Numbered from the whole stretch's first letter, positions 1 through 57,339 are shown. The stretch is 63,988 nucleotides of DNA, filler included, from Malassezia furfur (GCA_052055015.1; 11 parts of 11 records of this genome joined end to end with filler, not necessarily neighbours in it); one strand, 5' to 3'. Notes: a model not told the origin generated them from the letters alone. Numbers and translations: made by a program.

Positions 1-1205
1 CGCCGTCGCACGCCTCGCCCGCCCAGGCGCGCAGCGCGCACCCCTACGCGCCGCCGTCGCGCTCCAACTCGGCCGCGAGCGTCGTGCCCAACATGCACAT
101 GTACCAGCCCGCGTCGGTGCCCGGCGTCGACGGCACCGCCGGCCCGGACAACTACCCCCACACCCCGACGTACGCGGCGGCCACCCCGCCGCACGACCCG
201 TACGCACGCTCCGCGGACGCCTGGGGCTTTGGCGCACAGCCCACCGGCACGCCGGGGCCCAACATGCCGTCGCTCGGCGCCGGGATGATGAACGATGCGA
301 CGGCGCAGATGGGCATGCAGTTTGGCCGGCACGTCGCGCAGGTCGGCGGCGAGTACATGCAGCGCAACGTACGTCCCTTTGACTCACCCCCCAGTTCCGC
401 GCCCTGCTCCCGATGCCGATGCTCAAGCACTACTTCAACGTGTCCAACTCGTACGTGCTGCACAAGCTGCGCATCATTGTGTTCCCGTGGCGGCACAAGC
501 CCTGGTCGCGCCGCCTGCGCTACACGACGCCGTACGGTGCGTCGGGCATCATGTCGCCGGGCCAGAGCGCGTCGCCGACGCCGTACGCGGGCATGAGCGC
601 GCCGGACCGGCCGCTGTCCGCGAACGGCGCCCGCCTCGCGAACGGCGCCGAGCCCGTGTCGTTCTGCCCGCCACGCGAGGACGTCAACAGCCCCGACATG
701 TATATACCCTGTACGTCGCTGCCCCCGACTGACCCACACAGCCATGGCGTTTGTGACGTACACCATCGCGACGTCGGCCATCTACGGACTCCGCGGACGC
801 TTCCACCCGGAAAACCTGGGGTACACTGCGTCGCGTGCGCTCGCGATCGTCGTGATCGAGTTCACCGCCGTGAAGCTGGGATGCTACCTGCTCAACATCC
901 AGGGGGACCACACCGTGTTCGACTTGGTGGCCTACTCAGGCTACAAGTTTGTCGGCACGCTCCTTGTGCTTGCCGTCGGCATGCTCCCGCTCGGCCGCTG
1001 GGCGTACTGGCTGACGTTCCTGTACGTGTTTGCGGCGAACGCCTTCTTCCTGCTGCGGTCGCTGCGCTACGTCGTGCTCCCGGACCCTTCGTCGCCGTCG
1101 AGCGTCACGGTGACCCAGGCGCAGCGCGCGACGCGCATCCAGTTCCTGTTTGCGATCGCCATGTCGCAGATCGTGTTTGGGTGGCTCCTTGTGATCGGCG
1201 TGTAG
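1..1205 (+). CDS. YIF1: Yif1-family ER-Golgi integral membrane protein, 5'-partial; introns 369-394 (26 nt) and 711-741 (31 nt)
   Basis: Splicing joins three ORF pieces into AQMGMQFG...LKHYFNVSNSYVLHKLRIIVFPWRHKPW...REDVNSPDMYIPSMAFVTY...DLVAYSGYKFVG, the Yif1 motifs. Frame is open to the window edge. Confidence 0.93.
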
Positions 1206-1329
1206 GCGCGCGTGCGTACATAGACAAGAAAAAAGGGGGTGTCCTACGTGCAGCCTGTGGCCAGCATCTGCACGGTGCGTCGGGCCATGCCACGTGCCGG
1301 TGTTGCACAGGCGGCAAGAAAATGAAAAC

Positions 1330-1361
1330 AAAAAAAAAAAACAAACAAACGGGCAAAAAAA
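1330..1361 (-). terminator. RNA polymerase III oligo-T terminator of the tRNA gene
   Basis: A-runs on + (T-runs on -) at 1355-1361 and 1330-1341, immediately 3' of the tRNA. Confidence 0.75.
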
Positions 1362-1364
1362 GAA

Positions 1365-1457
1365 TGACCAGCACGGGGCTCGAACCCGCAACCTCCTGAT
1401 GTGCTCGGTCCAGAGGACCTTCGTAGTCAGACACACTACCAATTGTGCTAACCGGCC
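1365..1457 (-). tRNA. tRNA-Arg(ACG) with a 20-nt intron (1401-1420) after position 37
   Basis: Reverse complement folds as a cloverleaf: acceptor GGCCGGT/GCTGGTC, D arm GCAC-AATTGGTA-GTGT, anticodon arm TCTGA-CT-ACG-A[intron]A-TCAGG, T arm GCGGG-TTCGAGC-CCCGT. 73 nt after removing the intron. Confidence 0.93.
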
Positions 1458-2024
1458 AGGCGTTGCAGAGGGGGGTACATTGTGACTACATAAGGGGTGG
1501 GCAGGATGGGGGGTCAGAGGCACCAGTTGTCGAAATCGGGCAGAATTATGAAAAGGGGCCAAATTGAGGCATCCATCAAGTGGAGCACACGCACGAAGGG
1601 TAGTAGTCCACCTACCGATCTCGGACGCGTTGCACCTATGGCATGACCGGCCTATGTACATAGTCGAAGTGAGGCACAAGAAAGGTGCGCAGCCACAACA
1701 CTGATGTGCGGCCGTAGAACTGATGCGTGTGCGGCTCGCTTGCAATAACGTGGGCCGTGCGCGCGAGTGCGCGAGTTTCTGCCCCCTTAACTACTTCCTC
1801 CCTTATCATCGCGCCGGAGCGAGCCACACTGCTGCACCACCACACCCCCACGGCCGTATGCCATCCTACGTCGCGCCAGTGCTCTGCCGACCACGCCGGG
1901 CCCCTCGCGCTGCTATAGGTCCGGCGCCGACCGCGCTCGTGCGGCCTCCACATTCGGCCGAAGAAGTTTTTTCGTAGTGGCCGTGCCCCTCGTCTTTCCT
2001 TGCACGATAGTTCGGTCGGACGAG

Positions 2025-5000
2025 ATGCGCAGCGAATCGCCCGCCTCGGACACGTCGTCGTCGGGCCCCGGCACGCCGCCGGAGCCGAGTGCGATGATGG
2101 GCGACAAGGACGCCGAGCTTGCGTCCTGGAACGAGCCACATACCTTCCACACGCTGTCGCGGCAGCGGCGATTCATGCACCCCAAGCACGACGCGCGCGA
2201 CGTGCCCGAGCTGCGCGAGATCACGCGCCCCCACGTCGAGAGCTTCAATGCGCTCTGGGCCGAGGACCCGTCGATCGATGCGGCACCGGGTGTGGGGCTC
2301 GAGGGCATGGGCCTGCTGGAGCGTAGCCTGCAGACGCTGCCGCCGCGCGTCGTGTTTGACGGGCACGGCGGCGAGGGCGACAAGGGCAACCGCCTCGAGA
2401 GTACGTTGTGCGGGTGGATACTGACGACGCAGTGCGCATTGATGCCGTGTCGCTGAGCCGCCCCCAGGTGCCGGACCGCGCGAAGGATGCGCTGGACCGC
2501 CGCGTGTTCCCCGACGAGTGCCGGCAGCGCCTGTCGACGTACCGCGGCCGGCTGACGGCGCGCATCTCGTGGAGCGTCAACAATGGCCCCGAGCAGAGCG
2601 ATATCCGGGACATGGGCCAGGTGCCGATCATGGTCGGCTCGAACCGGTGCAATCTGCGCGGGATGGGCTCCTCGGAGCTCGTGGCGCACCACGAGGAGCC
2701 GAACGAGATGGGCGGCTACTTTATCATCAACGGCAACGAGCGCCTGATGCGTTTCCTGATCCTGACCAAGGCGAACCATGTGATGGCGCTCGAGCGCCCG
2801 TCGTTTGTGCGCCGTGGCCCGTCGTACACGAGCAAGGCGTGCTCGATCCGGTGTCTGGGCAAGAACGACCTGGTGAGCGTCACCAACTCGGTGCACTACC
2901 TCGAGAACGGCGGTGTGACGCTGCGTTTCTCGTGGCGCAAGCAGGAGTACATGGTGCCGGTGGTGATGGTGCTCAAGGCGCTGGTGAGCGCGACGGACAA
3001 GGAGATCTTTGCGTCGATCGTCGGCTCGGACATCGACAACACGTTCCTCACCGACCGCGTGGAGCTGCTGCTGCGTGGCTTCAAGCGGTACGCGCTGTGG
3101 ACGGGCGAGCAGTGCCTCGAGTACCTCGGCGACAAGTTCCGGGTGGTGATGCGCGCGCCGGAGGACTGGACGAATGCGCAGGTCGGCGAGGAGCTGATCA
3201 ACCGGCTTGTGCTGCCGCACCTCGACCTGCCGCGCGAGAAGTACCGCCTGCTGGTGTTTATGGTGCGCAAGCTGTACGCGTTTGTGGCGGGCGAGTGCTG
3301 TGCGGACAACCCCGACTCGCCGCAGCACCAGGAGGTGCTGATGCCCGGCTTTTTGTACGGCGCGATCATCAAGGAGCGGCTGGACGAGTACCTGATCAAC
3401 GTGCGCAGCGTGCTTGCGCGCGACGTGCGCGCGCAGGCGAAGGAGTGCGACTTCTTCGACGCGCGCTACATCCAGCGCACGCTCGCGAAGGTGAACGGCG
3501 ATGTAGGTGCGCGCCTCGCGTCGTTCCTCGCGACGGGCAACCTGTCGTCGCCGAGCGGCCTGGACCTGCAGCAGGTCGGTGGCTTCACGATCGTCGCGGA
3601 GAAGCTCAACTTCTACCGGTACCTCGCGCACTTCCGCAGCGTGCACCGCGGCGCGTTCTTTGCCGAGCTGAAGACGACGACCGTGCGCAAGCTGCTGCCC
3701 GAGGCGTGGGGCTTCCTGTGCCCGGTGCACACGCCCGACGGCAGCCCGTGTGGCCTGCTGAACCACTTCTCGCACACGTGCCAGCTCACGACGCGCGACG
3801 CGGACGTCGCGGCGGTGCCGGCGCTGCTCACGTCGCTCGGCATGACCGAGGTGCTGGCGCCGAACATCAGCCCCAAGACGCACGTCGTGGTGCAGCTCGA
3901 CGGCGCGATCATCGGGTACGCGCCGCCGTCGCTCGCGCGGCACATGGCCAACGTGCTGCGCATCTGGAAGACCGAGGGGCGGGCGGGCGTGCCGCTCGAC
4001 CTCGAGGTGGGCTTTGTGCCGACGTCGCACGGCGGGCAGTACCCCGGCCTGTACCTCTTCTCCGGGCGCGCGCGCATGCTGCGCCCGGTGCGCTTCCTGT
4101 ACAACAACCGCACGGACCTGGTCGGGCCGTTTGAGCAGGTGTACCTCGAGATCGCGTGCCGCGACGAAGAGATCCAGCGCGGCGTCTCCACGCACGTCGA
4201 GACTGCGCCGACCAACGTGCTGAGCGTCATCGCGAACCTGACGCCCTTCTCCGACTTCAACCAGAGCCCGCGCAACATGTACCAGTGCCAGATGGGCAAG
4301 CAGACGATGGGCACGCCGTCGGGTGCGCTCGCGCGGCGCACGGACAACAAGCTGTACCGCCTGCAGTCCGGGCAGACGCCCGTCGTACGCCCGGCGCTGC
4401 ACAACAAGTACGCGATCGACGACTTCCCGAACGGCACGAACGCGATCGTCGCCGTGATCTCGTACACGGGCTACGACATGGAGGACGCCATGATCCTGAA
4501 CAAGTCGGCGTACGAGCGCGGCTTCGGGTACGGCACCGTGTACAAGTCGGAGGCGATCAACCTGCGCGACCTCGTGGGCGGCGCGCGCGCGAGCGGCGCG
4601 CTGCCGGTGCACTTTGGCTTTGGCGACGACGTGCGTGCGGACGACGCGCGGCGCACGCAGCTCGACGTCGACGGCCTGCCGTTTGTGGGCGACCTGCTCA
4701 CCAAGGGCAGTCCGCTGTACGCCGCGTACAACGAGGCGACGGGGCGCACGATCGTGAAGCGCTACAAGGGCGACGAGGCCGCGTACGTCGACACGGTGCG
4801 TGTGATCGGCAGCGACGCGGGCGACACCGAGTGCCAGCGCGTGCAGATCACCTTCCGCGTGCCGCGTGCGCCGGTGATCGGCGACAAGTTTTCGTCGCGC
4901 CACGGCCAAAAGGGTGTGTGCTCGCAAAAGTGGCCGGCGGTCGACATGCCGTTCAGCGAGAGCGGCATGCAGCCGGACGTGATCATCAACCCGCACGCGT

Positions 5001-5779: not shown

Positions 5780-5815
5780 TGCGGAGGCGTGTGGAACGTG
5801 TGCAGTGGCGGGCGG

Positions 5816-6004: not shown

Positions 6005-7034
6005 GCGGCGCCGTACCCAGCGCGTGCATCGCCGCCGCCTCGTACGCGTCCGGATCCCACTGCTGCGCAGGCGCCTCGCGCGCCATTGCATTCATACGCT
6101 GCTGTGCGATCGCCAAGTTCTGCAGCTCGCGCCGCGAACGTGCAGGCGGAAGTGCGGCGCGCTCATCCGCGTCGGTCAGCTCGACGACGCCCGCGACCAA
6201 AAAGTCCTGCCAGTCAATCTCATTAAAGAGACTCTGCATGCGCTTCTCCTCGTGCGCCATGTCGCGCGCGCGGTCCGCGTGCCACTTGGCCCACGCAGCG
6301 CGCTTGCGCACGTCGCGCAGGACGTGCGTCCGCGCCCCACCGCGCCCCGGGCCTTGCAACGCGAGGCCCTCGCCGTGCGAGCACGCATGCACGTGGGCGA
6401 GGCGCTGTGCGGTCGGGTGCATCACGCGTCGGTACTGATCGACGAGCAGGTTGAAGTAGCTAAACAGTGGGTGCGCCGGCCGCAGAAACTCGAACTGGTA
6501 CGAGCGCGCCTCGCGCGCGAGGAGCCCCGTGGCGAACGCCGGCCCCCGGCGCGCGGTAAAGAGCGCGGTGAGCTTGAGCACGTCGAGGTCGACGGCCGGC
6601 ACGCCGGGGAACTCGATCGAGAACTCGTGCGCGGGCGGCTCCTCGGGCACGGCGGTGTCGGCGTGCGAGGCAGAGCGGTCCGCCTGCACGGCGGCCGTGA
6701 CCTGATCGGCGGCGCTGCCCGTGGAGAGCGGCGCGTGCTCCTGCGTGCCCTGGCGCGCCGCCTCGGTCTGTGTGCGGTAGTAGGCATAGTACGGGTCGCC
6801 CTCGTTCAGGAACGCAAACTTGGGGTTGCCTCGCTCCTGCTCGCGGATTTTCGCCTCGAAGCGCGGCCCGACGCGTGCGACGAACGACGCCGTCTTGTCG
6901 ACGATCGCACGCAGGTCGGGCGGCGGGTAGATCACCTCGCTGGTGTCGAAGCGGCTCGCCTTCTTCGCCTCGTCCGCAAGCGGCACAAGTTCCGACGGCG
7001 CGGCATGCGTCGGCGCCGGCAGGTCGAGCGGCAT
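6005..7034 (-). CDS. PRP21: Splicing factor 3a subunit 1 (two SURP/SWAP domains), 3'-partial
   Basis: [20 protein letters not shown]...[29 protein letters not shown]...[28 protein letters not shown]. Confidence 0.93.
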
Positions 7035-7085: not shown

Positions 7086-8619
7086 ATGGGCGAGGTGCGG
7101 CCGGCGCGCGACGAGGTGCGCGCGGCGCTGTGCGGCGATGCCGCGGCGCCCGCGCGCGGGACCATGATCCCGGTATACACGAAGCTGCCTGCAGACCTGC
7201 TGACGCCGGTGATGGCGTACTTGCGCCTGTCGGACGGTGCGCCGCGCGGGCACCAGAGCTTCCTGCTCGAGAGCGTGAACACGGGCGAGCGCGTGGGGCG
7301 CTACAGCTTCCTCGGCACGCGCCCGTTCGACGTCGTGCGCACGGGGCCCGGCCTCGAGCAGACGGGCGACCCGCTGCGGCACCTCGAGGCCAAGATGGCC
7401 GCGTACGAGTACGTGTCGCTGCCCGAGCTGCGCATGTTCACCGGCGGCGCCGTCGGCTACATTGCGTTTGACTGCATCGAGCACTTTGAGCCCAAGACGC
7501 GCCGCCCGCTGCGCGACCCGTTCGGCATGCCGGAGAGCGTGCTGATGCTGTGCGACACGGCGGTCATCTTTGACCACGTGTTCCAGAGCGTGTACTGCAT
7601 CGCGCACGTCTATGCGCCGCACGGCACCGCCCCCGAGGCCGTCGACGCGCGCTACGACGAGGCGGTCGCGCGCGTGCACGCGCTCGCGCGCGCCATCTTC
7701 CAGGAGCACACGCCGCTGCCCGCGCAGCCGCCGATCGCCGCGTCCAGCGCGCCGGAGAGCAACGTCGGCAAGGCGGGGTACGAGGCGTTTGTCACGTCGC
7801 TCCGCGAAAACATCCTGCACGGCGACATTTTCCAGGCGGTGCCGTCGCAGCGCCTCACGCGGCGCACGGCGCTGCACCCGTTCAACTGCTACCGCCACCT
7901 GCGGCGCATTAACCCAAGTCCGTATATGTTCTACATCGACTGCGGCGACGCGCAGCTCGTGGGCGCGAGCCCAGAGACGCTGTGCTGCGTGCAGCAGGGC
8001 AAGGTCGCGGTGCACGCCATCGCGGGCACCGTGCGGCGCGGCCGCACGCCCGCGGAGGACGCCGAGCTCGCGGCGCAGCTCGTCGCCTCGGAAAAGGACA
8101 AGGCGGAGCACATCATGCTCGTCGACCTCGCGCGCAACGACATCAGCCGGGTGTGCGACCCGCTCACCACGACGGTCGAGTCGCTGATGAACGTCGAAAA
8201 GTTCTCCCACGTCATCCACCTCACGAGCCGCGTCACGGGGCAGCTGCGCGCGAACCGCTCCAAGTACGACGCGCTGCGCTCCATTTTCCCCGCGGGCACG
8301 CTGTCGGGCGCGCCCAAGATCCGTGCCATCGAGCTCATCCGCGAGCTCGAGCAGGAGCGGCGCGGCGTGTACGGCGGCGCGGTCGGCCGCATCGACTTTG
8401 CGCGCGACGAGCTCGACGTGTGCATTGCCATCCGCACCATGGTGTTCAAGGACGGCGTCGCCTACCTGCAGGCGGGCGGCGGAATCGTGTTCGACAGCGT
8501 CGAGGAGGACGAGTACATCGAGACGATGAACAAGCTTGGAAGCAACCTGCGCTGCCTCGACGAGGCCGAAGGTATGTTTACACCACACTCACCCAGCGGC
8601 GTACCGTGTAGCGGCCTAA
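7086..8619 (+). CDS. TRP2: Anthranilate synthase component I; intron 8572-8596 (25 nt)
   Basis: SFLLES...[51 protein letters not shown]. Splicing gives C-terminus EAEAAYRVAA*. Confidence 0.95.
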
Positions 8620-8622
8620 AGC

Positions 8623-9042
8623 CTACCGCGCCAGACGCTCGAGCACACGTCGCACCCCATAGTGCGCAACACGTAGCGCCCACGCCGTGCGCTGCCGCGC
8701 ATGCTGTGCACCACGGACCACCGCGCGCCGCAGCACCAGCCATTCGCGCTCGCACTGCAGCAGGACGTCGGGCGCCGCGATGGGCGTCACGAGCGGCAGC
8801 GTCGGGCGCCGCGCACGCCGCGTAAACATATAGGCGAGCGCCGCGTAGACGAGCGCGGCGCAGACGAGACACAGGGGAATCAGGATTAGCAACTCGATCG
8901 TGTTTGTGTTGGGGATGCGTGAGGGAGCACTGCGTCAGCCGCACACCACGTACGGAGGCGGGTACATCGGCGCGCCGGCGCGGATGAGAGAAAGAGTGTC
9001 GTTGCGAACAGAGGGCGGGAGCGATTGCTCGATATGGTACAT
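8623..9042 (-). CDS. Hypothetical 131-aa single-pass membrane protein; intron 8930-8953 (24 nt)
   Basis: GTACGT..CTGACGCAG intron containing an in-frame TGA. Its removal fuses two ORFs in frame. Hydrophobic [23 protein letters not shown] is followed by RRARR. Confidence 0.6.
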
Positions 9043-9440
9043 GGCTGGGCCAGGCGGCGGCGCGCGGCCAAGCGGACGGTGCGCCGCATCACGGTGCGGC
9101 CGCAGATCGACGAGCCCAAGCGAGTACCGCGTGGCATGCGTCATCCCGACCTCGGATGCAAAGCACGGCGGCTGTGTGAGCGCGCGCAACGTACGCGATA
9201 AGGGTAGTCCGGGTACAGGACCATGTGCGCTGCCGGCGCCAAGGGCGTTCGGTGCGTCGAGAAAAACGCCAAGCACGCGGCCACTCACGGGCACGCGCCG
9301 GAATTAAGTTTGGGCGTCTGTGGAGGGGCCCGGCCGAGCCCTGGGGGAGGGAGGGCCCAGACGCCAGGGCAGCGGCAGCGGCGCAGGAGAGGCCAGGCGG
9401 CGAGGGCGCAGGCGCGCAGGGGGGGCACGCTACGACGACA

Positions 9441-9878
9441 CTACGAAAAGTCGCCCTTCATGAGCTTCTGCAGACGCTCGGGCGTGAGCTCAATGCCCGC
9501 CTTTTTCAGCTCCTCGACGACTGCGTCAGCGTGCGACGTACCTTTGCTCGTCGCCTGGCGCACGTCGCTCTTGGCCGCGAGGCGCGCGAGCGTGAACATG
9601 GATGGCTTCTCGCCCTTGGACAGGTCCATGCCGTGCGACTGGAGCACGTCCATGAGCTGACGGATCGCGGCAAGCGCGCCGGGCGACTCGCCGAGCTTCT
9701 CCATGCCCTTGGGCAGCGACGACGACGACGTCATCGAGTCGCGCTGGTCCTCGGACGCGCGCACCACCGCGGTCGTGTGCAGGTTGCGCGGAGACACACA
9801 CAGCGTGCGCGGCACAGCGACGCGCGGCGCACGCAGCGCCGCACGCAGCGGCAAAGTGCCCACACGGAAGGCCTGCAT
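9441..9878 (-). CDS. Small hypothetical protein with mitochondrial presequence-like N-terminus; probable 21-nt intron 9521-9541
   Basis: Arg-rich, acid-free N-terminus (MQAFRVGTLPLRAALRAPR...RNLHTTAVVRA), typical codon usage, canonical GTACGTCGCACGCTGACGCAG. Confidence 0.7.
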   Translation of the reverse strand: MQAFRVGTLPLRAALRAPRVAVPRTLCVSPRNLHTTAVVRASEDQRDSMTSSSSLPKGMEKLGESPGALAAIRQLMDVLQSHGMDLSKGEKPSMFTLARLAAKSDVRQATSKGTSHADAVVEELKKAGIELTPERLQKLMKGDFS

Positions 9879-9904
9879 CGTCGTGGGTGCTGACTCAGCC
9901 GACC

Positions 9905-11077: not shown

Positions 11078-11078
11078 T

Positions 11079-11599
11079 CTACTCGAGCGACGCATTGTAC
11101 GCCTCCTCCGAGAGCAGCTCGTCGAGCTCCGCGGGGTTCGTGAGCTTGATCTGCGCGAGCCAGCCGTCGCCAAGCGGCGACTTGTTGACGAGGCCGGGCT
11201 GGTCGTCGAGGTCGACGTTGGACGCGACCACAATGCCGCTCACCGGCGAGTAGATGTCCGAGGCGGCCTTGACCTGGGGTGAGTTCGCACACGTACCGAC
11301 TCGACCGAGCCAATCTGGTCGCCGCGCGAGGCCTCGAGCTCAAGCGGGGGCAGCTCAATGTACACGACATCGCCCAGGCTCTCCTGCGCGTGGTTCGTGA
11401 TACCGATCGTGCCAATGTTGGACTCGTCGTCGTAGCGCACCCACTCGTGCTCGGGCGTGTAGAAGGTCTGCACGCCAAGCACCGTGCGCGACGTCTGCAG
11501 CGAGCGCACAGGCATGGCAAACGAGGGCGCAACGCGCGGCATGGCGCGCGGCGCGGCACGGAGCGCGGGCACAGCAGCAGTACGCAGAGCAGCCAACAT
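11079..11599 (-). CDS. GCV3: Glycine cleavage system H protein; intron 11274-11296 (23 nt)
   Basis: [28 protein letters not shown]. Splicing restores the lipoyl motif [16 protein letters not shown]. Confidence 0.95.
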
Positions 11600-12001: not shown

Positions 12002-12379
12002 CGCGCACCTTGCGTCGCTCATCGACGAGCGCGGCGCGCGGACGCGGGCCGAGGAGCGCGCGGCGATCCTCGACAAGGAGGTGAGCCGGCTGAAGCGGCG
12101 CGTCGCCGACCGCGACGCGGGCGGCGCCGTGCGCAAGCGTGGCGCCGGCGACGAGAACACGCACCTGGCGTACCTCGACAGCCTGCTCAAGTGCTCGGCG
12201 TGCAAGGAGCGCTACCGCGACCGGATCATCACCAAGTGCCTGCACACCTTCTGCGAGGCGTGTGTGAATGCGCGCATCCAGACGCGGCAGCGCAAGTGCC
12301 CGCACTGCGGCCTGTCGTTTGCGATCAGCGACGTGCAGGTGCTCTATTGTACGTCGGCGCCACTGACCCAGTGCAATGA
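12002..12379 (+). CDS. BRE1: E3 ubiquitin ligase Bre1, C-terminal RING, 5'-partial; intron 12349-12371 (23 nt)
   Basis: LKCSACKERYRDRIITKCLHTFCEACVNARIQTRQRKCPHCGLSF. Splicing gives the end DVQVLYLQ*. Confidence 0.9.
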   Translation, partial: RAPCVAHRRARRADAGRGARGDPRQGGEPAEAARRRPRRGRRRAQAWRRRREHAPGVPRQPAQVLGVQGALPRPDHHQVPAHLLRGVCECAHPDAAAQVPALRPVVCDQRRAGALLYVGATDPVQ

Positions 12380-12395
12380 TGTATTTTTACGAAAC

Positions 12396-14074
12396 CTACG
12401 GCGCGAGCTTGTAGAGCAGGTCGATGAAGCGCGTCGCCATGTCGCCGATGAGCATCGGGCCGACCGCGGCGCTCTGCCCCAGACCGTACACGGTGGCCAT
12501 CGTGCCCGGCTGCGCGGGCTTCGTGCGCGAGTGCGCCACGGCCTCCTTAAGGTCCGCGACAAACTCGTCGACCACCGGCACGGTGAGCCGCGTGCACGCC
12601 AGGTGCACCGCCGGCGCGTCGCCGGCGATCGCGTTGAGGTGCCAACCGCGCTTGCTCATCTGGTCGCCCACGTCGTACACGTTGATCGCGCCCGCGCTGC
12701 CGATCGCAAACGTGCTCACGAGCGGGTGCCCCAAAATGGTCAGCTCGGGGATCTCGTCGCGGATGCGGCGCTCGATCGCCTTGGCTGCGCCGACGATCTG
12801 CTTGCACGACTCCGTGTATCCGTCCTGCCCCATCGCCACCATCACCGCCCACGTCGCAGCGATCAGCGCGCCGGGCCGCGAGCCGGCGAGCGTCGGCGAG
12901 GCGTACACACCGCCGACCCACGCGGGGTTAACGTAGTACTGGTAGCGGCGCAGCTCCTCGCTGTCATACATGACGACCGACGAGCCCTTCGGCGCGAAGC
13001 CGTACTTGTGCGTGTCGCACGAGATCGACGTGACACCCTCGACACGGAAGTCAAACGGCTCCGTGACGAACCCGGCCCGCTCCAAGAACGGCACGAGGAA
13101 CGAGCCGAGGCAGCAGTCGACGTGGCACTTGATGCCGTGCCGCTTCGCCAGCGCACCGAGCGCCACAATGTCGTCAATCATCCCGTCGGGGAAGTTGGGC
13201 GCACTGCCCACCAGCAGCACCGTGTTGTCGTTGATCGCACGGCGCACCGCGTCGATCTGCACCTTGCGCGAGACACGGTCGACAGGCACGCGGCGCACCT
13301 TGATGCCAAAGTAGTTGCCCGCCTTGTCGAACGCGACGTGCGCGCTCATCGGCACGACCATCTCGGGCTCGGTGATGCCGCGCTCGGCGTGCGCCCAGTC
13401 GCGCGCCGTCTTGCACGCCATCAGAATCGACTCGGTGCCACCCGAGGTGGTCGTGCCCGCAGCGCCCGGCGGCGCGTTGTACATGTCGAGCACCATCGCA
13501 ACCACCTCGGCCTCCATCTTGCGCACCCCGGGGAACACGTCGGGGTGCAGCGGGTTCGACAGCAAGAAGCGCCGCAGCGCATCGACGATCACGCGGCTCA
13601 GCTCGTCGCCGCCGTGGTACACGGCGCCCGAGCAGCGGCCGTCGCGCCAGTGCCGCTCCGAGTCGTCTCCCTGCTTCCCGAGGTGCTGCAGCACGTCCAG
13701 CTGCTTGTCAATCCAGCGCTCGTCGCGCCCATGCACCGGCAGCACCCGCATCGTCGGCACCGTCGACGGCAGAACGAGGTTCTGCTCGAGCTGGCCCGTA
13801 GCCGCCGACATCTCGCGCTCGACACGGCGCCGGTTCGCGGGGAGCTTGAGCAGCAGCCGCATCACGGAGCGCGCTACGGTGAGGTAGGTGTTGTACGCAA
13901 CGCCACGCACCCCCTCGGCCCGCACCGTGCGCACCCAACGCCGCGAAAAGTGCAGCACAACATACAGAAGAGCAAGCGTGCGCGCTACAGAATAAGCTCC
14001 TGGTTGACACACACACCATGGTCGTACGTCACTACTTGGCGTACCCAGCCGGCCCGCGCATCCTGGGCCGTCAT
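12396..14074 (-). CDS. DPL1: Sphingosine-1-phosphate lyase; probable intron 13985-14016 (32 nt)
   Basis: SGAVYHGG, SNPLHPDVFPGVRKMEAEVV, TSGGTESILMA, HVDCCLG, SISCDTHKYG (PLP lysine), GSRPGALIA. Confidence 0.93.
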
Positions 14075-14142: not shown

Positions 14143-14755
14143 TTACCACTCGAACTCGCTGTGGGTCAGCCGGGCGCACGTCGCCTACGCACCCATTGCA
14201 CTTCGAGAAGAGGTAGTCGCGCCCGCCAATCGACGCTACACCGTCGCGCAGGACACACTTCCACTTGTTTTTCACACGCTGCACCTTGTCGTAGAGACAC
14301 AGCATCATATCTTCATTGCCGTCCGCGTCCTCCTCCTCGGAGTCGTCCAGGTCCGAGCCGATCTCGTTGCTCGCCGCATCGTCGTCGTCCTCGTGCTTCC
14401 GCTTCGTACCCGCCGTAGCACCGGACGAGGCAGACTTGCCGTCCGCAGACGCCGCCTCTTCCTTCGGCTCGGTCTTGGCCGGCTTCGCGTCGGTGGCGCG
14501 TGCGGTCGTCGACGTCGACGTCGAGGCGACCCCAGGCGTCGTCGTGTATTGCACAGGCGGGCGCGCGCCGGGCACACTGCCGTTCGCGCCGTCGAACTCG
14601 GTCACCTGGGTCGCGACGAGCTTCGCCTCCCAGCTGCGCTGGAGCTCCTCGAGCACCTCCTTTTCGATGCCCATGTCCTCAAAGTCCTGTCGGACGTTTG
14701 CGATCACATCGTCGATGATGTGCCGAAACGTCAAAGACACTACCTTGTTGCTCAT
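14143..14755 (-). CDS. TOA1: TFIIA large subunit; intron 14159-14192 (34 nt)
   Basis: IIDDVIANVRQDFEDMG...WEAKL; LGSDLDDS-like acidic stretch; MLCLYDKVQRVKNKWKCVLRDG. Splicing gives CNG|EFEW*. Confidence 0.95.
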
Positions 14756-18866: not shown

Positions 18867-18900
<34 letters not shown>

Positions 18901-26710: not shown

Positions 26711-28109
<1,399 letters not shown>

Positions 28110-30574: not shown

Positions 30575-30622
30575 CGCCGAAGCGTGAATCTCCACCTCCA
30601 CCTCCCCGCGTTGCTCGTTGTC

Positions 30623-39127: not shown

Positions 39128-39779
39128 ATGGCGGCGAACAGTGCACAGAACCTGCGCAAGAAGCGAAAGATTGCGGTGCTTGGCTCGCGCTCAGTCGGTG
39201 CGTGGGATGTGCTGACCTTTAGGCAAGTCGTCGCTGGTCGTGCGCTTTGTCGAGGACGCGTTCGTCGACTCCTACTACCCCACGATCGAGAACGTGTTCG
39301 AGAAGACGATCAAGCACAAGGGCCAGGAGTACTCGTGCGACATTGTCGACACGGCGGGGCAGGACGAGTTCTCGATCCTCAACTCGAAGCATGCGATCGG
39401 GATCCACGGCTACGTGCTGGTGTACTCGATTGCGTCGCGTGCGTCGTTCGAGATGATCCAGACGGTCTACGACAAGATCCTCAACTACACCGGCACGGCG
39501 ACCATCCCATGCGTGCTCGTGGGGCAGAAGAGCGACTTGCACGCGCAGCGGTACGTGGCCCACTGACCCGCAGGCAGGTGTCCGAGGCCGAGGGCAAGGA
39601 GCTCGCGCAGCAGCTCAAGTGCGCGTGGGTCGAGACGAGTGCGCGGCACAACGCCAACGTCGGTGCGTGCGGCGAGACTGACCACAGCCAAGGTGTTCGA
39701 TCTGATGCTCGGCGAGATCGAAAAGTCGCTGAACCCGGGCGCGAGCGAGGCGCAGTCGTCCTCGTGCACGGTCATGTAG
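39128..39779 (+). CDS. RHB1: Rheb GTPase; introns 39198-39222 (25 nt), 39551-39573 (23), 39663-39687 (25)
   Basis: RKIAVLGSRSVG|KSS, FVDSYYPTIEN, DTAGQDEFS, ETSARHN, CaaX CTVM*. Confidence 0.95.
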
Positions 39780-39963: not shown

Positions 39964-41168
39964 ATGACGGCCCCCGACAACAGCCTGCCGACGCCGCCCG
40001 CCAAGGGCAACGAGTCCTATGTGCTGCTCGACGTGGAAAAGACCGTGTTTGAGGACCGCCCCGTGGCGCCGCTCGCGCCGTACGAGGTGCGCGTGAATGT
40101 GCGCCAGACGGGTCTGTGCGGCTCCGACTGCCACTACAAGATGCACGGACGCATCGGCGACTTTGTGCTGCGCAAGCCCATGGTGCTCGGCCACGAGTCG
40201 TCCGGCATCATCACCGCCATCGGCTCCGACGTCACGGACCGGCGCGTCGGCGACCGCGTTGCGCTCGAGCCCGGCGTGCCGTGCTGCATGTGCGCCTTGT
40301 GCCTTGCGGGGCACTACAGCCACTGCGAGAAGCTCGTGTTTGCGGCCACGCCGCCGTACGACGGCACGCTCGCGACCTACTACAACCTGCGCGCGGCGTT
40401 TGCGCACCCCATCCCCGATAACATGTCGCTCGAAGCCGCGTCGCTCATGGAGCCGCTCAGCGTCGCCGTGCACGCTGCCGTGACACTCGGCCGCGTGCGG
40501 GCGCTCGAGAACGTGCTCGTGTTTGGCGCGGGCCCGATCGGCCTGCTGTGCGCCGCCGTCGCGCGCGCGTACGGTGCCAAGCGCGTGTACGTTGCCTGCC
40601 TACTCACCCAGCGTCTGTGTCGACCTGGTCGACGAAAAACTCGCGTTTGCGCAAGACTTCTGTGCCACGTCGACGTTCAAGACCATGCCGCCCAACCCGG
40701 AAGAGTCGGCGATGGACTGCTCGCGGCGCAACGCCGAGGCGCTCGTCGCCGAGCTTGGCGAAGACGTGGCCGAGAACGGCGGCTTCGACCTCGCGCTCGA
40801 GGCCACCGGCGCCCAGTCGTGCCTGCAAATGGCGTGCTGGGCCATGCGCACGCTCGGCCGGATCGTCGCGGTACGTGCGCCCCCTCACACAGATCGGCAT
40901 GGGCAACCCTGAGCCGCAGATCCCCATCACGCGCATGATGGTCCGGGAGGTGTCGCTGGTCGGCTCGTTCCGCTACTGTGCGGGCGACTACGACAAGTCG
41001 ATTGCGCTCGCGAGCACAGGCAAGATCGATGTCGAGCGCCTCGTGACGCACCGCTACCTGTTTAAGGACGCGGACAAGGCGTTTGACACGACGGCGCGCG
41101 GCAAGGGCGAGGACGGCAAGGCGTGCATCAAGGTGCAGATCTGCCAGGGCGCCGCGCCGGAGGTGTAG
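39964..41168 (+). CDS. Zn-dependent polyol (xylitol/sorbitol) dehydrogenase; introns 40587-40611 (25 nt) and 40871-40892 (22 nt)
   Basis: TGLCGSD, PMVLGHESSG, VGDRVALEPG, four-Cys Zn site, FAATPPYDG, GAGPIG, GSFRY. Confidence 0.92.
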
Positions 41169-42693: not shown

Positions 42694-43386
42694 TTACTGC
42701 ATTAGGGGATCTCAGGGAACCAAGGGTACGCACCTTGCTCATCATCATCTGTCCATTAGCCAGTCCATACGTACCCTGACAAACTCGTTGTAGTTGATCT
42801 GGCCATCGCCGTCCGTGTCCGCCTCCCGGATCATTTCTTCGACCTCCTGGTCCGAGAGCTTTTCGCCTGCAGTGTTAGATGCGGGGGCACAATGCGCGCA
42901 GCGTACCCAAATTCGTCATGCTGGGTGAGCACAGGGTAAACAACGTACACATGACGCAGCTCAGCCGCGCTGATAAAGCCGTTGCCGTCTTTGTCAAACA
43001 CCTTGAAGGCCTCCTTGATCTCCTCCTCGCTGTCGGTGTCCTTCATCTTTCGCGCCATCATCGTCAGGAATTCGGGGAAGTCGATGGTCCCATCGCCGTC
43101 CGCATCGATTTCGTTCACCATGTCCTGCAGCTCAGCCTCGGTCGGGTTCTGACCAAGCGACCGCATCACCGTGCCGAGCTCCTTGGTGGTGATCGAACCG
43201 TCGCCATCTGGAGTCAGGCGGGAGGACAACATACCCTTGTCGAACAACGAGAACGCCTCCTTGAATTCTGCGTTACACCTCACCACATACCCGCAATTTG
43301 CTCTGAGGTGAGTGATTCCACGTACCTTCACTCTGCTCGCGTTAGTACGGCCGCCAAACATTCCCACGTACCAAGTGATCCGCCAT
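42694..43386 (-). CDS. CMD1: Calmodulin; eight introns (43333-43371, 43303-43325, 43268-43290, 43208-43234, 42921-42948, 42867-42906, 42749-42774, 42697-42733)
   Basis: Spliced [34 protein letters not shown]...[16 protein letters not shown]...EFVR|MMMSK|*, with four EF hands. Confidence 0.96.
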
Positions 43387-53038: not shown

Positions 53039-53138
53039 NNNNNNNNNNNNNNNNNNNNNNNNNNNNNNNNNNNNNNNNNNNNTTAATTAATTAANNNNNN
53101 NNNNNNNNNNNNNNNNNNNNNNNNNNNNNNNNNNNNNN

Positions 53139-55980
53139 CCAAGAAGGGAGGTTCGCAGCTCGCGCAGCTCCGCTCGGGGCTGCGCGACGCCGGAGTCACC
53201 ACCAGCAAGCCAAAGAAGGGCAGGAAGGAGGACAGGGACGACCGTGTCGGGCAGTACCGCCGCGAGCAGCGCCGGAAGCGGCTCGACGCCCTCATGTCGT
53301 CGCTGAACGCGTTCGACGAGCGCACCGCGCGCGCCAAGAACGACGTGCTGGGGCGCAAGGTGAAGGGCACGACGGGGCGCCCGGGCGCGTCCAAGTCGGA
53401 CGCGATCCAGCTGCGCCGCGAAAAGCTCCTCCCGGAGCTCGAGGCGCGGCACCGCTCGTCGTCGTTCGTCGACCGCCGCTTCGGCGAGTACAACCCGCAC
53501 CTGTCGGTGGAAGACAAGATGCTCCAGCGCTTCACGCACGAGCGGCAGAACCGCATGGGCAAGACGTCGCTGTTTGACCTGAACGACGACGAGGAGGCCG
53601 GCCTGACGCACTACGGCCAGAGCCTCAGCGGCCTCGACGAGATGCCCGATGTGATGCACGAGGACGACGAGGAGCACGGTACGTATACCCGCACACACGG
53701 CGCGCCAAGGATGATCCGACGCATGCAAACGTCCAAACCGAATGAGCCGACAGGCTGTGCCGGGAAAAAGTTCTACTGGAGATTGCTGAGGCGTCGCCCG
53801 TGCGGCTTGCGAACACGCTGACCACAGGCAACATGGACGCCTACGAGACGCAGGGGCACTTTGCGGGCTTTGCCGAGGGCGAGGGCGAGCGCAGCAAAAA
53901 CGAGGTCATGAAGGAGATCATCGCCAAGTCGAAACTCGCCAAGGCCGAGCGCCAAAAGGTCAAGGACGCCGACGACGAAATGCGCATGGAACTCGACGAG
54001 GAGCTCGGCGATATCCGCTCGCTGCTCTTCTCGCAGAAGCGCGACGAGGAGCAGGACGAGGACGCGGCGCCCAAGGCGCCGGCGCCCGACGAGAAGAGCG
54101 AGGCGTACGATGCGTTTGTGCGCGAGATGGCGTTTGAGCGCCGCGCACGGCCGCAGGACCGGCTCAAGACCGCCGAGGAGCTCGAAGAGGAGCAGGCCAA
54201 GCGCCTGCGCGACGCCGAGGCCGCGCGCCTGCGGCGTATGCACGGCGAGCCGGACGAGGAGGAGCAAGATACCCACGAGGAGGAAGAGGAGGCGACGGGG
54301 CGCATGCGCTTTGGCCTGGGCGAGGGCTTGGACGCGAAGCGGCCGCGCGACGACGAGGATGAGGAGGACGACGAGGAGGGCGATGAGGAGGATGAGGAAA
54401 GCGACGAGGAGGACGAGGGCGAAGAGGGCGAGGAGGAAGAGGAGGAAGAGGAAGACTCGGACGACGACTCAGACGCCGACGACGCCGACGACGCTGCGCT
54501 CGCGCGCTTCGAGCGCCACCTCGACGCGGCCGAAGAGACCGCGCCTGGCCGGCACCGCACGCTGCCGAAGCGCAGCGAGGTGCCGACGCTGCCATTCACC
54601 TTCCCCTGCCCCAGCACGCACGACGAGCTGCTCGACCTGCTCGAGGAGCATGGCGTGCAGCCGTCGCAGCTCCACACGGTCGTGAGCCGCATCCGCACGC
54701 TGCATGCGCCGCACCTCGACGAAAAGAACCCCGAGCGGCTGCAGCGCCTGCTCGGCGTGCTGATCGACCACCTGCTGTACCGCGCGAGCCAAGCCTCGGG
54801 CGGCGACGATGCGGCGGACGTCGTGGTGCTGAACGACCTCCTTCTGCACATCGCCGAGCTCTCGAAAACATACCCCGCGCGCAGCGCCGAGCACTTTGTC
54901 GCGAAGCTCGCCATGATGCAGCGCAACCTCACGCGCGGGCTGAGCCGCGGCGCGTTGGAGCGGACGTCGCACACGTGGCCGGCGCTGCCCGAGCTGTGCC
55001 TGCTGCGTGCCGCCGGGATCGTGTGGCCGACGAGCGACCGCTGGCACCCGGTGGCGACGCCGCTCGCGCTGCTCATGGCGCAGTACCTCGCGCACGCGCG
55101 CATCCGCTCGCTCGAAGACATCGCCGCGGCGCTCTACCTCGTGTCGCTGCTCGCGTCCGACCAGCGCGCGAGCCGCCGGCTGGTGCCCGAGGCGCTCAAC
55201 GTGCTCTACTCCGTCGTAGCAATCCTGCTCCCGCCCCTGCGCGCCAAGGGCGCCGCGCCGGCCAAGGCGCTCGCCGAGGAGTTTGGCATCCCGACGCCAG
55301 ACGTCGGTGCACCGCACACGGCCGGCCTGGCGCTGCGCGAGGACGCAGCGCCCGCGGCGCCTGTGCACCTCGTGCCGCTGCTCGCGCACGCGCCCGACAC
55401 GGCGCAGACGCGTGCGGACCTGCTCGGCGTCGCGGTGCAGCTGCTCGCGACGTGGGCGGAGCTGTACGCGCCGAGCCCCGCGTTTGTGGAGCTTTTCACG
55501 CCCGCGGCCTTTTTGCTCGAGGTCGGTGCGGCGCACGTGCGTGCGAAGCAGCCGCGCATCGGCGCGCACCTCGGCGAGGCGGCGCGTGCGCTGCGTGCGC
55601 AGCTGGAGCGTGCGCTGCGTGCGCGGCGTGCGCTGCGGCTGCAGGCGCACCGTGCGCTGTCGATTGCGTCGTATGCGCCCAAGTTCGACCAGCAGGGCTT
55701 CGACCCGAAGCGCGCGACGGACCCCGATGCGGAGCGTGCGCAGAACGCCAAGCTGCGTGCGCTGCTCAAGAAGGAGCGCAAGGGCGCGATCCGCGAGCTC
55801 CGCAAGGACGCGCAGTTTGTCGCCGAGGCGCGCGAGCAACGCCGCGCCGAGGAGGACGCGGCGTACAAGCGCAAGATCGACAAGATCACCCACGGGCTGC
55901 AGGAGGAGCGCTCCGAGGAAAAGCAGCTCGACCGCGCCAAGGCGACGCTGCGCAAGCGCGCGGGCAAGCGCGCGACATAG
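53139..55980 (+). CDS. NOP14: Nucleolar protein Nop14, first codons missing; intron 53679-53827 (149 nt)
   Basis: GSQLAQLR, FVDRRFGE, LTHYGQSL, RSKNEVMKEIIAKSK, RARPQDRLKTAEE, TSDRWHPVATP, KKERKGAIRELRKD. Confidence 0.95.
53699..53798 (+). ncRNA. Intronic box C/D snoRNA candidate
   Basis: Terminal stem GGCGCGCC/GGCGTCGCC, box C AGGATGA (53708-53714), D' ATGA (53742-53745), box D CTGA (53786-53789), guide GTTCTACTGGAGATT (53770-53784). Sits in the only long intron of the window. Confidence 0.82.
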
Positions 55981-56037
55981 CCTGTACCATAGACGCCGCG
56001 GCGCGTGCGGCCCTCCAGCTGGGACCTCCACTTCCGA

Positions 56038-56976
56038 ATGGTGCGCCGCGGCCGCTGACGCAGGTGACCAAGCCGTCCAAGACCGCCGTCGCGCAGCGGT
56101 TCGTCGCCGTGACGGGCGCAAGCGCCGCAGACGCACAGCAGTACCTGCGCGAGACCAACTACCGCCTCGACGCGGCCGTCGACGCCTACTTTGCGCAGCA
56201 GAGCGCCGCGCCTCGGCTCTCGGCAGCGCAGGAGCGCGAGGCGACTGCCGCGCTCCACGCCGTGTTCGACGCCTACCAGGGTACGCCTCCCAGCTCACAC
56301 AGACCCGGATGGGGAGCCGGACACCATCACGGCCGAGGGCGCACTCCGCCTGTTTGGCGATCTCGGCGTGGACGTCGCCAGTGTGTCGGTGCTGCCGCTG
56401 TCGTACTACCTCGACGCGCCGTCGCTCGGCCACTTTACGCGCGCGGGCTTCACCGAGGGCTGGCTGCGCCTCGGCCTCGGGCCCGCGCTCGTGGGGCGCC
56501 CCGCGCCCGCCGAGGTGCTCGAGCAGATGCGCCGCGCCGTGCCGGCGATCGACGGGGCCTTCCGCACGAACGGCCCCGTGCTCCCGCCGCGCACGCCGGG
56601 CCAGGGCGCGAGCAAAAAGGGGCTGTATACTACCGTGTACGAGTACACGTTTGTGTTTGCGCGCAGCGAGGGCCAAAAGAACCTGCCCGTGGACGTGGCA
56701 CTGACGTTCTGGGACCTGCTCGTCCCGTACGCGCCCTCGTACGACGGCGAGGGCACGCGCGGCGCACCGCCCTCGTTCTCGGCGCGCCAGTACGCGCTAT
56801 GGAAACAGTTTCTGACCGAGGCGGCCAACGTGCGCATCATCTCCAAGGATACCTGGACGCAGTTTCTCGAGTTCACGCAGGAGATCGACCCGCACTTTGC
56901 GACGCACGACTTTGACGCCGCATGGCCTTCGCTCATCGACGAGTTTGTCGAGTGGGCACGCAAGCAGGATGCATAG
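56038..56976 (+). CDS. DCN1: Dcn1 (UBA-like plus PONY domain) neddylation E3; introns 56041-56063 (23 nt) and 56281-56302 (22 nt)
   Basis: FVAVTGAS..DAQQYL..YRLDAAVDAYF, FGDLGVD, FTRAGFTEGW, YEYTFVFAR.EGQKNL, ISKDTW, DAAWPSLIDEFVEW. Confidence 0.92.
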
Positions 56977-57044
56977 AGCTTTTACACGATGGTATACAAC
57001 AGTGGGTATTCAGCACGGCGTACCAACTCTGTCGCCGCGCCCGC

Positions 57045-57339
57045 TCACGCCTCCGACTCGGCGAGCTCGCGCACGTACAGCACGTTGTTGCATCTTCGTC
57101 AGCGCGCACACACGTACCGGATGAACACCTCGCCGAGCGTGCCGTTCGACTTGCCGTCCTGCAGCTCTTCGGTGTTGGCGAGCTGGAAGTTCATGTAGTT
57201 GTCGGTGCTCACTAGGAACCCCTTGTACTCCAGGCCCCACTTGAGCCGCACGAGCACCTTCTTTCCGATCTGCTGCTGGAGAAACGGCTTGGGGTTCACG
57301 GGATAGTCCTGCGTCAGCGCGCGCTCCACGTACCGGCAT
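57045..57339 (-). CDS. SMX3: Sm protein F; introns 57309-57333 (25 nt) and 57094-57117 (24 nt, AAG acceptor)
   Basis: [43 protein letters not shown]...LGEVFIR|CNNVLY. Confidence 0.93.

Follow-up and report, generated by a model that had tools for sequence, protein, structure and literature searches.

Probable ultra-short U2-type introns in a 64-kb sample of the Malassezia furfur genome: lengths, splice signals and conserved positions

The window analysed here is a stretch of 63,988 bases from Malassezia furfur (GCA_052055015.1). It is made up of 11 contigs of 5.0-5.9 kb each, joined by N spacers and a short linker, and its ~63 kb represent less than 1% of a genome of ~8 Mb. Among the genes that it carries are those for calmodulin, UBC12, a zeta-COP-like protein, Naa30, a rhodanese/TUM1-like sulfurtransferase, YIF1, ALG10, Nop14, a Ras-family GTPase and SmF; all of them contain short GT-AG segments, which are the subject of this work. 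The G+C content of the contigs ranges from 62 to 71%, and a value of 64.9% is given for M. furfur in Table 2 of PMC7025860. When the translations of the exons were compared with known proteins, the closest relatives were proteins of Malassezia: the calmodulin exon is 99% identical to that of M. sympodialis, the UBC12 exon 100% identical to those of M. furfur and M. japonica, and the SmF exon 89-92% identical to those of M. restricta and M. cuniculi.

Curation of the window led to a set of 54 GT-AG introns on 8 of the 11 contigs (1, 2, 3, 5, 6, 7, 8 and 10), which amounts to 0.86 intron per kb. A gene parser relying on dynamic programming, which was given codon usage and GT..AG ends only, allowed introns of 15-250 nt and was not supplied with any splice motif, predicted 20 introns of at most 50 nt; 14 of them carry GTRNGY together with CTSAY, neither of which had been requested. 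Scanning the window for GTRNGY followed by CTVAY and, no more than 9 nt further on, by YAG returned 68 matches of at most 40 nt, against 11.95 in base shuffles and 4 in the reversed sequence. These 68 matches correspond to 49 curated introns, 9 matches nested inside curated introns, 3 enclosing curated introns and 7 unrelated ones, and the whole excess above chance is therefore explained. With the stricter motif GTAYGY..CTVAY..YAG, 35 matches were found against 1.25 in shuffles, an enrichment of about 28-fold. The five accepted introns that the scan missed, namely those with the branch motifs CTTAC, TTAAC and GTAAC, one with an AAG acceptor and one of 149 nt, were obtained from the parser or by reading the locus. 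The frame of the exons at each junction was chosen by the best coding score, since the longest open reading frame (ORF) is misleading in GC-rich DNA, where spurious frames run longer. This choice was wrong for all four Naa30 introns, and so was the stop call that it produced for 31390-31410.

The lengths of the introns are concentrated just above 20 nt. Seven introns measure 21 nt, five 22 nt, 13 measure 23 nt, three 24 nt, 11 measure 25 nt and three 26 nt; lengths of 27, 28, 31, 34, 35, 39 and 40 nt occur once each and lengths of 32 and 37 nt twice each, so that the 26-40 nt class holds 14 introns, and a single intron reaches 149 nt. The median is 24 nt, with a distribution-free 95% interval of 23-25, and the mean is 27.8 nt (n = 54). 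Introns shorter than 30 nt number 44, those of at most 40 nt number 53, and none is shorter than 21 nt: with a median below 30 nt and a narrow spread, the set has the properties of an ultra-short intron system. A preliminary description of the window had reported 53 introns spread over 9 contigs, with a median of 24 nt and a minimum of 21 nt. Our independent curation confirms the short introns, their median and their minimum; it returns every size class unchanged except that of 23 nt (13 introns instead of 12), places the first intron (369-394) and the last one (57309-57333) at the same coordinates, and reduces the number of contigs to 8. In Paramecium, multiple-of-3 introns that lack a stop are depleted. 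Here, multiple-of-3 lengths account for 12 of the 54 introns where 18 would be expected, a depletion that is not significant (p = 0.11), and 7 of these 12 lack an in-frame stop. Odd lengths of 21, 23 and 25 nt are found in 31 introns and even lengths of 22, 24 and 26 nt in 11 (binomial p = 0.003).

In layout, the introns follow the order GTRYGY, 6 or more nt of spacer, CTRAC or CTCAC, 1-5 nt and YAG, in agreement with the preliminary description, which gave the first spacer simply as short. All of them begin with GT and end with AG. The two first donor positions and the fifth are invariant (G, T and G in 54/54), while the third is A in 43 and G in 11 introns, the fourth C in 46, T in 4, G in 3 and A in 1, and the sixth T in 43 and C in 11. 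The resulting consensus, GTACGT, falls into the extended U2-type donor class GTRNGT. The branch motif is CTGAC in 25 introns, CTCAC in 20, CTAAC in 3 and another form of NTNAY in 6, which makes 54/54. It is separated from YAG by 1 nt in 31 introns, 2 nt in 10, 3 nt in 7, 4 nt in 4 and 5 nt in 2. Position -3 of the acceptor is C in 50 introns, T in 3 and A in 1, and the first AG past the branch A is the 3' site in 53/54. The introns have a G+C content of 63%. Their branch-to-YAG spacers of 1-5 nt are 51% pyrimidine; because T makes up only 7% of them, there is no polypyrimidine tract, in agreement with the preliminary description. Such a tract is dispensable in yeasts as well, and its lack therefore does not exclude membership of the U2 type. 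No donor of the RTATCCTT type, which in U12-type introns goes with the branch motif TCCTTAAC, occurs among the 54.

The position of the putative branch A accounts for the shortest lengths. For 41 of the 54 introns, this A is located at positions 16-20 counted from the 5' end, and in no intron does it come before position 16; its distance to the 3' end is 5 nt in 31 introns, 6 nt in 10, 7 nt in 7, 8 nt in 4 and 9 nt in 2, with a minimum of 5 nt. Since all seven 21-nt introns are 16+5 combinations (6 nt of donor, 6 of spacer, 5 of branch motif, 1 and 3 of YAG), two independent minima add up to the floor of 21 nt.

Several departures from these signals were recorded. The only non-YAG acceptor in the set is the AAG of the 24-nt SmF intron at 57094-57117 (-), which was confirmed by five guide proteins out of five. 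A scan for GC-AG introns gave 9 matches against 3.55 expected, none of which was accepted: 7 share the 3' end of a GT intron or sit within an exon, 1 lies opposite an annotated gene and 1 would break an ORF of 1044 codons. The C found at donor position +4 in 46 of the 54 introns (GTACGT) pairs with neither the canonical 5' end of U1 nor the ACAGAGA box of U6. No gene for a small nuclear RNA (snRNA) was detected in the window, the sole RNA gene found being a tRNA-Ser gene.

Removal of the segments restores both frames and homology. The lengths of 42 of the 54 introns are not multiples of 3, and their removal is thus needed for the reading frame to stay open. Homology supports 27 or 28 of the 54, including four of the seven 21-nt introns; these are the eight introns of calmodulin, six of UBC12, three of zeta-COP, two each of Naa30 and the rhodanese, one or two of SmF, and five for which Pfam profiles are continuous. 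Exons were submitted singly to Pfam, and the profile coordinates on either side of an intron were compared: they adjoin across seven introns, among them those of YIF1 (93/95), GCV_H (56/57), UQ_con (69/70), ALG10 (351/357), Ras (118/121) and Nop14 (133/149). We also used a spliced protein-to-DNA aligner, with foreign guide proteins and with GT-AG ends and a minimum of 15 nt as sole constraints. With two guides each, it placed 6/6 UBC12 introns, 5/8 calmodulin introns and 3/3 zeta-COP introns at the curated coordinates. For SmF, the 24-nt intron was recovered with all five guides and the 25-nt intron with one of the five. The three calmodulin introns that it missed lie beside exons of 7 and 12 nt or before the stop codon: intron 2 was missed because its flanking exons are that small, and intron 8, located between the last codon and the stop, is undetectable by a protein-guided aligner. 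A 20-nt SmF "intron" past the stop codon, proposed from the guide P0405 (one of five), was read as a tail artefact. Long extra introns that appeared under looser parser settings were antisense to real genes, with exons lacking any Pfam match, and were rejected.

In UBC12 (25969-26667, -), removal of six introns gives a protein of 177 aa that aligns without gap to six non-Malassezia UBC12. In the zeta-COP-like gene (37049-37726, -), removal of introns of 23, 25 and 21 nt gives a protein of 202 aa colinear with its homologues. Calmodulin (42694-43386, -) contains introns of 39, 23, 23, 27, 28, 40, 26 and 37 nt between exons of 15, 7, 12, 33, 259, 14, 92, 15 and 3 nt, the last exon being the stop codon alone; the spliced product has 149 aa and is gap-free against six calmodulins of fungal, alga-type and mammalian origin. 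In the rhodanese, the match to the chains 6yj5_q and 1urh_A stops at residue 92 on the 5' side of the intron pair and resumes at residue 97 on its 3' side, the corresponding residues being 119 and 124 in 3utn_X. The gap of 4 residues in these three of six chains is exactly filled by the 11-nt micro-exon, while three mammalian-type chains leave 6 residues.

The positions of the UBC12 introns were compared with those in 12 other fungal loci from metagenome contigs, picked from 80 returned with preference for high rank and long contigs. At the positions and phases 3/0, 31/1, 63/1, 92/0 and 142/1, introns are present in 9 of these 12 loci, where they measure 49-65 nt or longer. Because positions and phases are shared with 9/12 loci, five of the six UBC12 introns of the window appear as old introns that have shrunk to 22-35 nt. 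A M. globosa-like contig (L010:800-1520) carries UBC12 introns of 35, 32, 39 and 29 nt at four shared positions and lacks two of the six introns of the window; two of its four introns are GC-AG, with the donors GCATGT and GCACGT. A spliced model restricted to GT donors gave long introns in this contig that are spurious, because two of its introns start with GC, and the locus was read by eye instead.

Table 1. Curated introns of the window, in order of position (strand in brackets), with the evidence for each
Gene	Length (nt)	Position	Evidence and remarks
YIF1	26	369-394 (+)	Not a multiple of 3, joins open exons; exon 2 begins at YIF1 profile position 29
YIF1	31	711-741 (+)	YIF1 profile 29-93 in upstream exon, 95-244 in downstream exon; split codon at 94
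RNA polymerase I subunit 2	32	2401-2432 (+)	Frame restored from ATG exon to 1114-aa Rpb2-domain exon
Anthranilate synthase, 3' end	25	8572-8596 (+)	Full motif, frame change; weak because only 6 codons follow
Unnamed ORF	24	8930-8953 (-)	Full motif, in-frame stop; ORF coding score 15.4, no family match; weak
Same unnamed ORF	23	9172-9194 (-)	Full motif, frame change; host ORF weak
Small unnamed gene (9441-9878)	21	9521-9541 (-)	Candidate; motif only; multiple of 3, stopless
Glycine cleavage H-protein	23	11274-11296 (-)	GCV_H profile 3-56 in upstream exon, 57-119 in downstream exon
RING-finger gene, 3' end	23	12349-12371 (+)	Full motif, one codon follows; weak
PLP-decarboxylase, 5' end	37	13874-13910 (-)	Candidate; TAG acceptor; 36-aa first exon without homology support; weak
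TFIIA large subunit, 3' end	34	14159-14192 (-)	Motif, four codons follow; nested donors would give 30 or 21 nt
Arrestin-like gene	21	24477-24497 (-)	Candidate; donor GTACGC, branch CTTAC; motif only; multiple of 3, stopless
Arrestin-like gene	25	24681-24705 (-)	Frame change, in-frame stop; 16-nt same-frame alternative donor (24681-24696) possible
Rhodanese/TUM1-like sulfurtransferase	21	25215-25235 (+)	Chain colinearity; in-frame stop
Rhodanese/TUM1-like sulfurtransferase	25	25247-25271 (+)	Chain colinearity; frame change
UBC12, intron 6	25	26001-26025 (-)	Aligner, two foreign UBC12 guides; product colinear with six UBC12 from outside Malassezia
UBC12, intron 5	35	26104-26138 (-)	Aligner and colinearity; position/phase 142/1, intron in 9/12 fungal loci
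UBC12, intron 4	22	26287-26308 (-)	UQ_con 41-69 then 70-119; aligner; position 92/0 common to other fungi
UBC12, intron 3	25	26398-26422 (-)	Donor GTAAGC, branch TTAAC; aligner and colinearity; 63/1 common to other fungi
UBC12, intron 2	26	26519-26544 (-)	Aligner and colinearity; 31/1 common to other fungi
UBC12, intron 1	32	26627-26658 (-)	Past 9-nt first exon; aligner and colinearity; 3/0 common to other fungi
M24 metallopeptidase	25	27941-27965 (+)	GT-AG-only parser; frame change, 410-aa to 47-aa exon
Unnamed gene (29781-30736)	24	30347-30370 (-)	Candidate; motif only; multiple of 3, stopless
Unnamed gene (29781-30736)	23	30535-30557 (-)	Frame restored
VMA21	22	30682-30703 (+)	Frame change; VMA21 profile 2-63 in downstream exon
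Naa30 (NatC catalytic subunit)	22	31067-31088 (-)	Frame change; spliced model open to stop
Naa30	21	31390-31410 (-)	Human/yeast Naa30 gap spans its 7 residues; gap 12 in human, variable loop
Naa30	21	31430-31450 (-)	Read-through gives exact 7-residue gap against 7mx2_A (human) and 6yga_A (yeast), conserved motif
Naa30	23	31496-31518 (-)	GT-AG-only parser; frame restored
Alpha/beta hydrolase (Abhydrolase_3)	23	33356-33378 (+)	Frame change, in-frame stop; downstream exon from profile position 19
ALG10	23	34402-34424 (-)	DIE2_ALG10 profile 7-351 upstream; 357-391 downstream, from residue 5
ALG10	23	35416-35438 (-)	GT-AG-only parser; frame change, in-frame stop
Zeta-COP-like	21	37111-37131 (-)	Aligner, two foreign guides; retention adds 7 residues absent in 10/10 homologues
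Zeta-COP-like	25	37221-37245 (-)	Aligner; conserved motif restored
Zeta-COP-like	23	37670-37692 (-)	Aligner; conserved N-terminus restored
RabGAP-TBC	21	38925-38945 (-)	Full motif, in-frame TGA; 25-aa upstream exon without homology support
Ras-family GTPase	25	39198-39222 (+)	Frame change; downstream exon from Ras profile position 12
Ras-family GTPase	23	39551-39573 (+)	Ras profile 12-118 then 121-149
Ras-family GTPase	25	39663-39687 (+)	Full motif, frame change
Zinc alcohol dehydrogenase	25	40587-40611 (+)	GT-AG-only parser; frame change between ADH_N and ADH_zinc_N exons
Zinc alcohol dehydrogenase	22	40871-40892 (+)	GT-AG-only parser; frame change
Calmodulin, intron 8	37	42697-42733 (-)	Last codon/stop codon boundary; spliced product ends as 6 other calmodulins
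Calmodulin, intron 7	26	42749-42774 (-)	Colinear product and spliced aligner
Calmodulin, intron 6	40	42867-42906 (-)	Colinear product and spliced aligner
Calmodulin, intron 5	28	42921-42948 (-)	Colinear product and spliced aligner
Calmodulin, intron 4	27	43208-43234 (-)	Colinear product and spliced aligner
Calmodulin, intron 3	23	43268-43290 (-)	Branch GTAAC; colinear product and spliced aligner
Calmodulin, intron 2	23	43303-43325 (-)	Colinear 149-aa product; missed by aligner
Calmodulin, intron 1	39	43333-43371 (-)	Colinear product; missed by aligner
Nop14	149	53679-53827 (+)	Only long intron; full motif; Nop14 profile 4-133 upstream, 149-862 downstream from residue 10
DCN1-like	23	56041-56063 (+)	Directly 3' of ATG; GT-AG-only parser; frame change, in-frame stop
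DCN1-like	22	56281-56302 (+)	GT-AG-only parser; frame change between UBA and Cullin_binding exons
SmF	24	57094-57117 (-)	AAG 3' site; spliced alignment with 5/5 SmF guides
SmF	25	57309-57333 (-)	Past 6-nt first exon; full motif; recovered with 1/5 guides (M. restricta)

Chains of micro-exons are found between ultra-short introns, as in calmodulin. The micro-exons measure 3, 7, 9, 11, 12, 14, 15 and 19 nt. That of the rhodanese lies at 25236-25246 (+, 11 nt) and that of Naa30 at 31411-31429 (-, 19 nt), and the first exon of DCN1 consists of ATG alone, at 56038-56040 (+). The gene for the splicing protein SmF (57045-57339, -) itself holds two ultra-short introns.

The splice signals, the frames and homology restored by removal of the segments, and the conserved positions are direct observations. 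They indicate that the segments are very probably ordinary U2-type GT-AG spliceosomal introns of Malassezia, shrunk to a near-minimal layout, and the presence in the window of genes for the splicing proteins SmF and Prp21/SF3a is in favour of this interpretation. From these data we infer that the introns are excised at the RNA level, with recognition that spans the intron (intron definition). The donor would be read by U1 and U6, the branch motif by SF1 and then U2, and the first AG past the branch A would be taken as the 3' splice site, the pyrimidine tract playing no part. The floor would follow from two limits, the branch A lying at intron position 16 or beyond and the 3' end 5 nt or more past this A. 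The micro-exons seem too small for exon-spanning recognition, which lends support to intron definition. Introns that lie 7-15 nt apart could hardly be occupied simultaneously and are thus probably removed sequentially. Likewise, the lack of a pyrimidine tract and the 5-nt tail suggest that the branch site directs recognition and that the closest AG serves as acceptor; yeast behaves in a similar way. Most of the introns would be old fungal introns at conserved positions that have shrunk from ~50-60 nt.

A number of points weigh against this interpretation or limit its reach. The evidence for splicing consists of DNA and protein sequence comparison, and the branch nucleotide is presumed to be the A of the motif from the motif alone. 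For 26 or 27 of the 54 introns, support comes from frame or motif alone. About eight introns (those starting at 8572, 8930, 9172, 9521, 12349, 13874, 14159 and 24477) have weak support, being located close to the ends of genes or within ORFs that match no family. Among the seven stopless multiple-of-3 introns, those at 9521, 24477 and 30347 have the motif alone and might be coding sequence. The search was biased towards coding regions and towards short introns with the motif, and any long introns or introns of untranslated regions (UTRs) that it missed would raise the median. The 21-nt floor, drawn from a set of 54 introns in 63 kb, falls short of proof, since two 16-nt candidates may be genuine, one at 9883-9898 (+) and the other using the same-frame alternative donor of the arrestin-like gene (24681-24696). 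The former stretch has all three signals (donor, branch motif and acceptor); it is flanked by a pair of divergent genes and would break the floor if it were a UTR intron.

These points bear on three other explanations. The segments might be retained, either as in-frame insertions or as frameshifts in decaying or mis-assembled genes; the seven multiple-of-3 segments without in-frame stop are translatable in principle, and several deposited Malassezia proteins do contain such segments. However, keeping 42 of the 54 would throw conserved housekeeping genes out of frame, and removal of the segments yields gap-free products for calmodulin, UBC12, zeta-COP and SmF. The inserted residues occur in no distant homologue examined, and the uniformity of the donor, branch and acceptor signals is far beyond chance; we consider retention highly improbable. 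Removal without the spliceosome, by a tRNA-type or Ire1-type endonuclease or by DNA elimination, would accommodate segments of a size within the range of tRNA and HAC1/XBP1-type introns, but the GT-AG ends and the yeast-like branch motif, each present in 54/54, are unlike endonuclease-type sites, and in other fungi ordinary spliceosomal introns of greater length occupy these positions in matching phases. We give this explanation almost no credence.

It is unlikely, if conceivable, that the introns are real and their histogram is an artefact of sample and method, the genome-wide median being ~30 nt and introns shorter than 21 nt existing. The sample is limited to 63 kb, detection relied on coding frames and on a motif scan that did not go beyond 70 nt, and there are the two 16-nt candidates. 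In addition, the tables available for relatives give a median of 30 nt and means of 30-37 nt (PMC9241646, Table 1; PMC5389616, Table 2). On the other hand, the parser, which accepted 15-250 nt, found on the coding strands of family-supported genes no convincing long intron except that of 149 nt, and none below 21 nt. The 95% interval of the median does not extend beyond 23-25, and seven introns measure exactly 21 nt, with none below and a single shared 16+5 geometry.

Short introns have been recorded in the genus before, and M. sympodialis and M. restricta show the same phenomenon as the window. For M. sympodialis, Table 2 of PMC5389616 lists 5350 curated introns, which average 30 bp and have RNA-seq support in 99% of cases, and the size distribution appears there as a figure only (Figure S8). 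For M. restricta, Table 1 of PMC9241646 lists 2150 introns (median 30, mean 37.2), and an annotation described in PMC6473144 set the minimum intron length at 15-20. A review mentions the 'very short introns' of Malassezia genes (PMC7426719). The intron density of the window, 0.86 per kb, is similar to the ~0.69 per kb that follows from the published M. sympodialis figures, while its median of 24 nt (23-25) is lower than the 30 nt tabulated for M. restricta. An older annotation of M. globosa puts the average intron at 76-79 nt (PMC4634964, Table 2), probably because short introns were overlooked. In the parts of a fungal intron survey that were accessible, M. sympodialis is treated only as intron-poor (PMC8476143). 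We found no analysis of the intron signal layout, the length floor or the branch-3' distance of Malassezia in the literature searched, which left subscription journals and most supplements outside. To call these introns novel would overstate the case, as tiny Malassezia introns were already in print; the preliminary account of genuine U2-type-looking introns stands. The compact, signal-rich system of the window is a further, somewhat more extreme example of a kind already recorded for the genus.

Other lineages with very short introns resemble this system in part. The short introns of ciliates are AT-rich and have a weak branch signal. Those of the window, in contrast, have a G+C content of 63%, a donor that hardly varies and a pronounced CTRAC branch motif. 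Both have in common a narrow distribution in the twenties, the lack of a pyrimidine tract and a requirement for recognition across the intron, according to the accessible text of PMC5014332 and PMC13644364, where ~25 nt is reported for Paramecium and Nyctotherus and 15-16 nt for Stentor. The introns of Stentor thus go below the 21-nt floor, and the suggestion that splicing in this fungus operates near the steric limit of the U2-type spliceosome is not supported in the form given (PMC13644364, citing PMC9505925); 21 nt would therefore be the limit of the signal layout of this lineage and not of the machine. Microsporidia, dicyemids and myxozoans are parasites with reduced genomes and median intron lengths of ~22-30 nt, and their introns are described as few, poorly spliced, or endowed with only a weakly conserved branch A (PMC13644364). 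The window differs from them in coming from a culturable yeast with a strong branch consensus and conserved ancestral positions. It shares with Saccharomyces-type yeasts a near-invariant 6-nt donor and a branch motif of the (U)ACUAAC class. Yeast uses the first AG past the branch, which holds for 53/54 introns here, and keeps the branch at least 10 nt from the 3' site. The branch-3' distance is 5-9 nt in the window, and Saccharomyces-type introns are long, with a mean of 397 bp in the accessible part of PMC8476143.

Among eukaryotes that can be cultured and transformed, this lineage might even have the most compact of all known information-rich U2-type introns, although we put this forward only tentatively and hold it to be somewhat doubtful. 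Such an intron would combine a 21-nt floor (15 nt from 5' site to branch and 5 nt from branch to 3' site), a donor with C at +4 that fits neither canonical U1 nor U6 pairing, and sequentially spliced chains with micro-exons of 3-15 nt. If this is true, the snRNAs or the SF1, U2AF and SF3 proteins should carry matching changes, and a sizeable part of the public Malassezia proteomes should be wrong at such sites. As a free-living, genetically tractable fungus with strong signals and introns of 21-26 nt, it would suit the study of the minimal size of U2-type introns. In its accessible portion, a 2026 survey of introns below 30 bp names ciliates, microsporidia, dicyemids and myxozoans as exceptions to a lower bound of ~30 bp and leaves out Malassezia (PMC13644364).

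The deposited proteins of the genus bear out the earlier inference that such introns would be mis-annotated. Seven of the eight deposited Malassezia UBC12 are defective exactly at intron sites, and only the M. sympodialis entry fits the consensus of 176-178 aa. In the M. furfur entry, 6 residues are missing because an upstream GT was taken as donor; in that of M. obtusa, four introns are kept as inserts of 7-8 residues; those of M. yamatoensis and M. pachydermatis retain one intron each; and those of M. japonica, M. cuniculi and M. globosa have wrong or truncated ends. Similarly, the deposited M. sympodialis calmodulin lacks the N-terminus encoded by micro-exons and reads through the last intron, and the zeta-COP representative reads through a 25-nt intron. 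The affected entries are among P0001, P0125-P0146 and P0244 of our protein set. Comparative and proteomic studies on these skin yeasts therefore inherit systematic errors at intron sites in public Malassezia proteins, and gene finders and read mappers used on Malassezia require a minimum intron of at most 20 nt as well as the handling of micro-exons.

Two features outside the intron set were also noted. The N-terminal part of Prp21/SF3a, with its SURP modules, is encoded at 6006-7034 (-). The tRNA-Ser gene, with the anticodon CGA, spans 95 nt at 1364-1458 (-), in the AT-richer spacer past YIF1.

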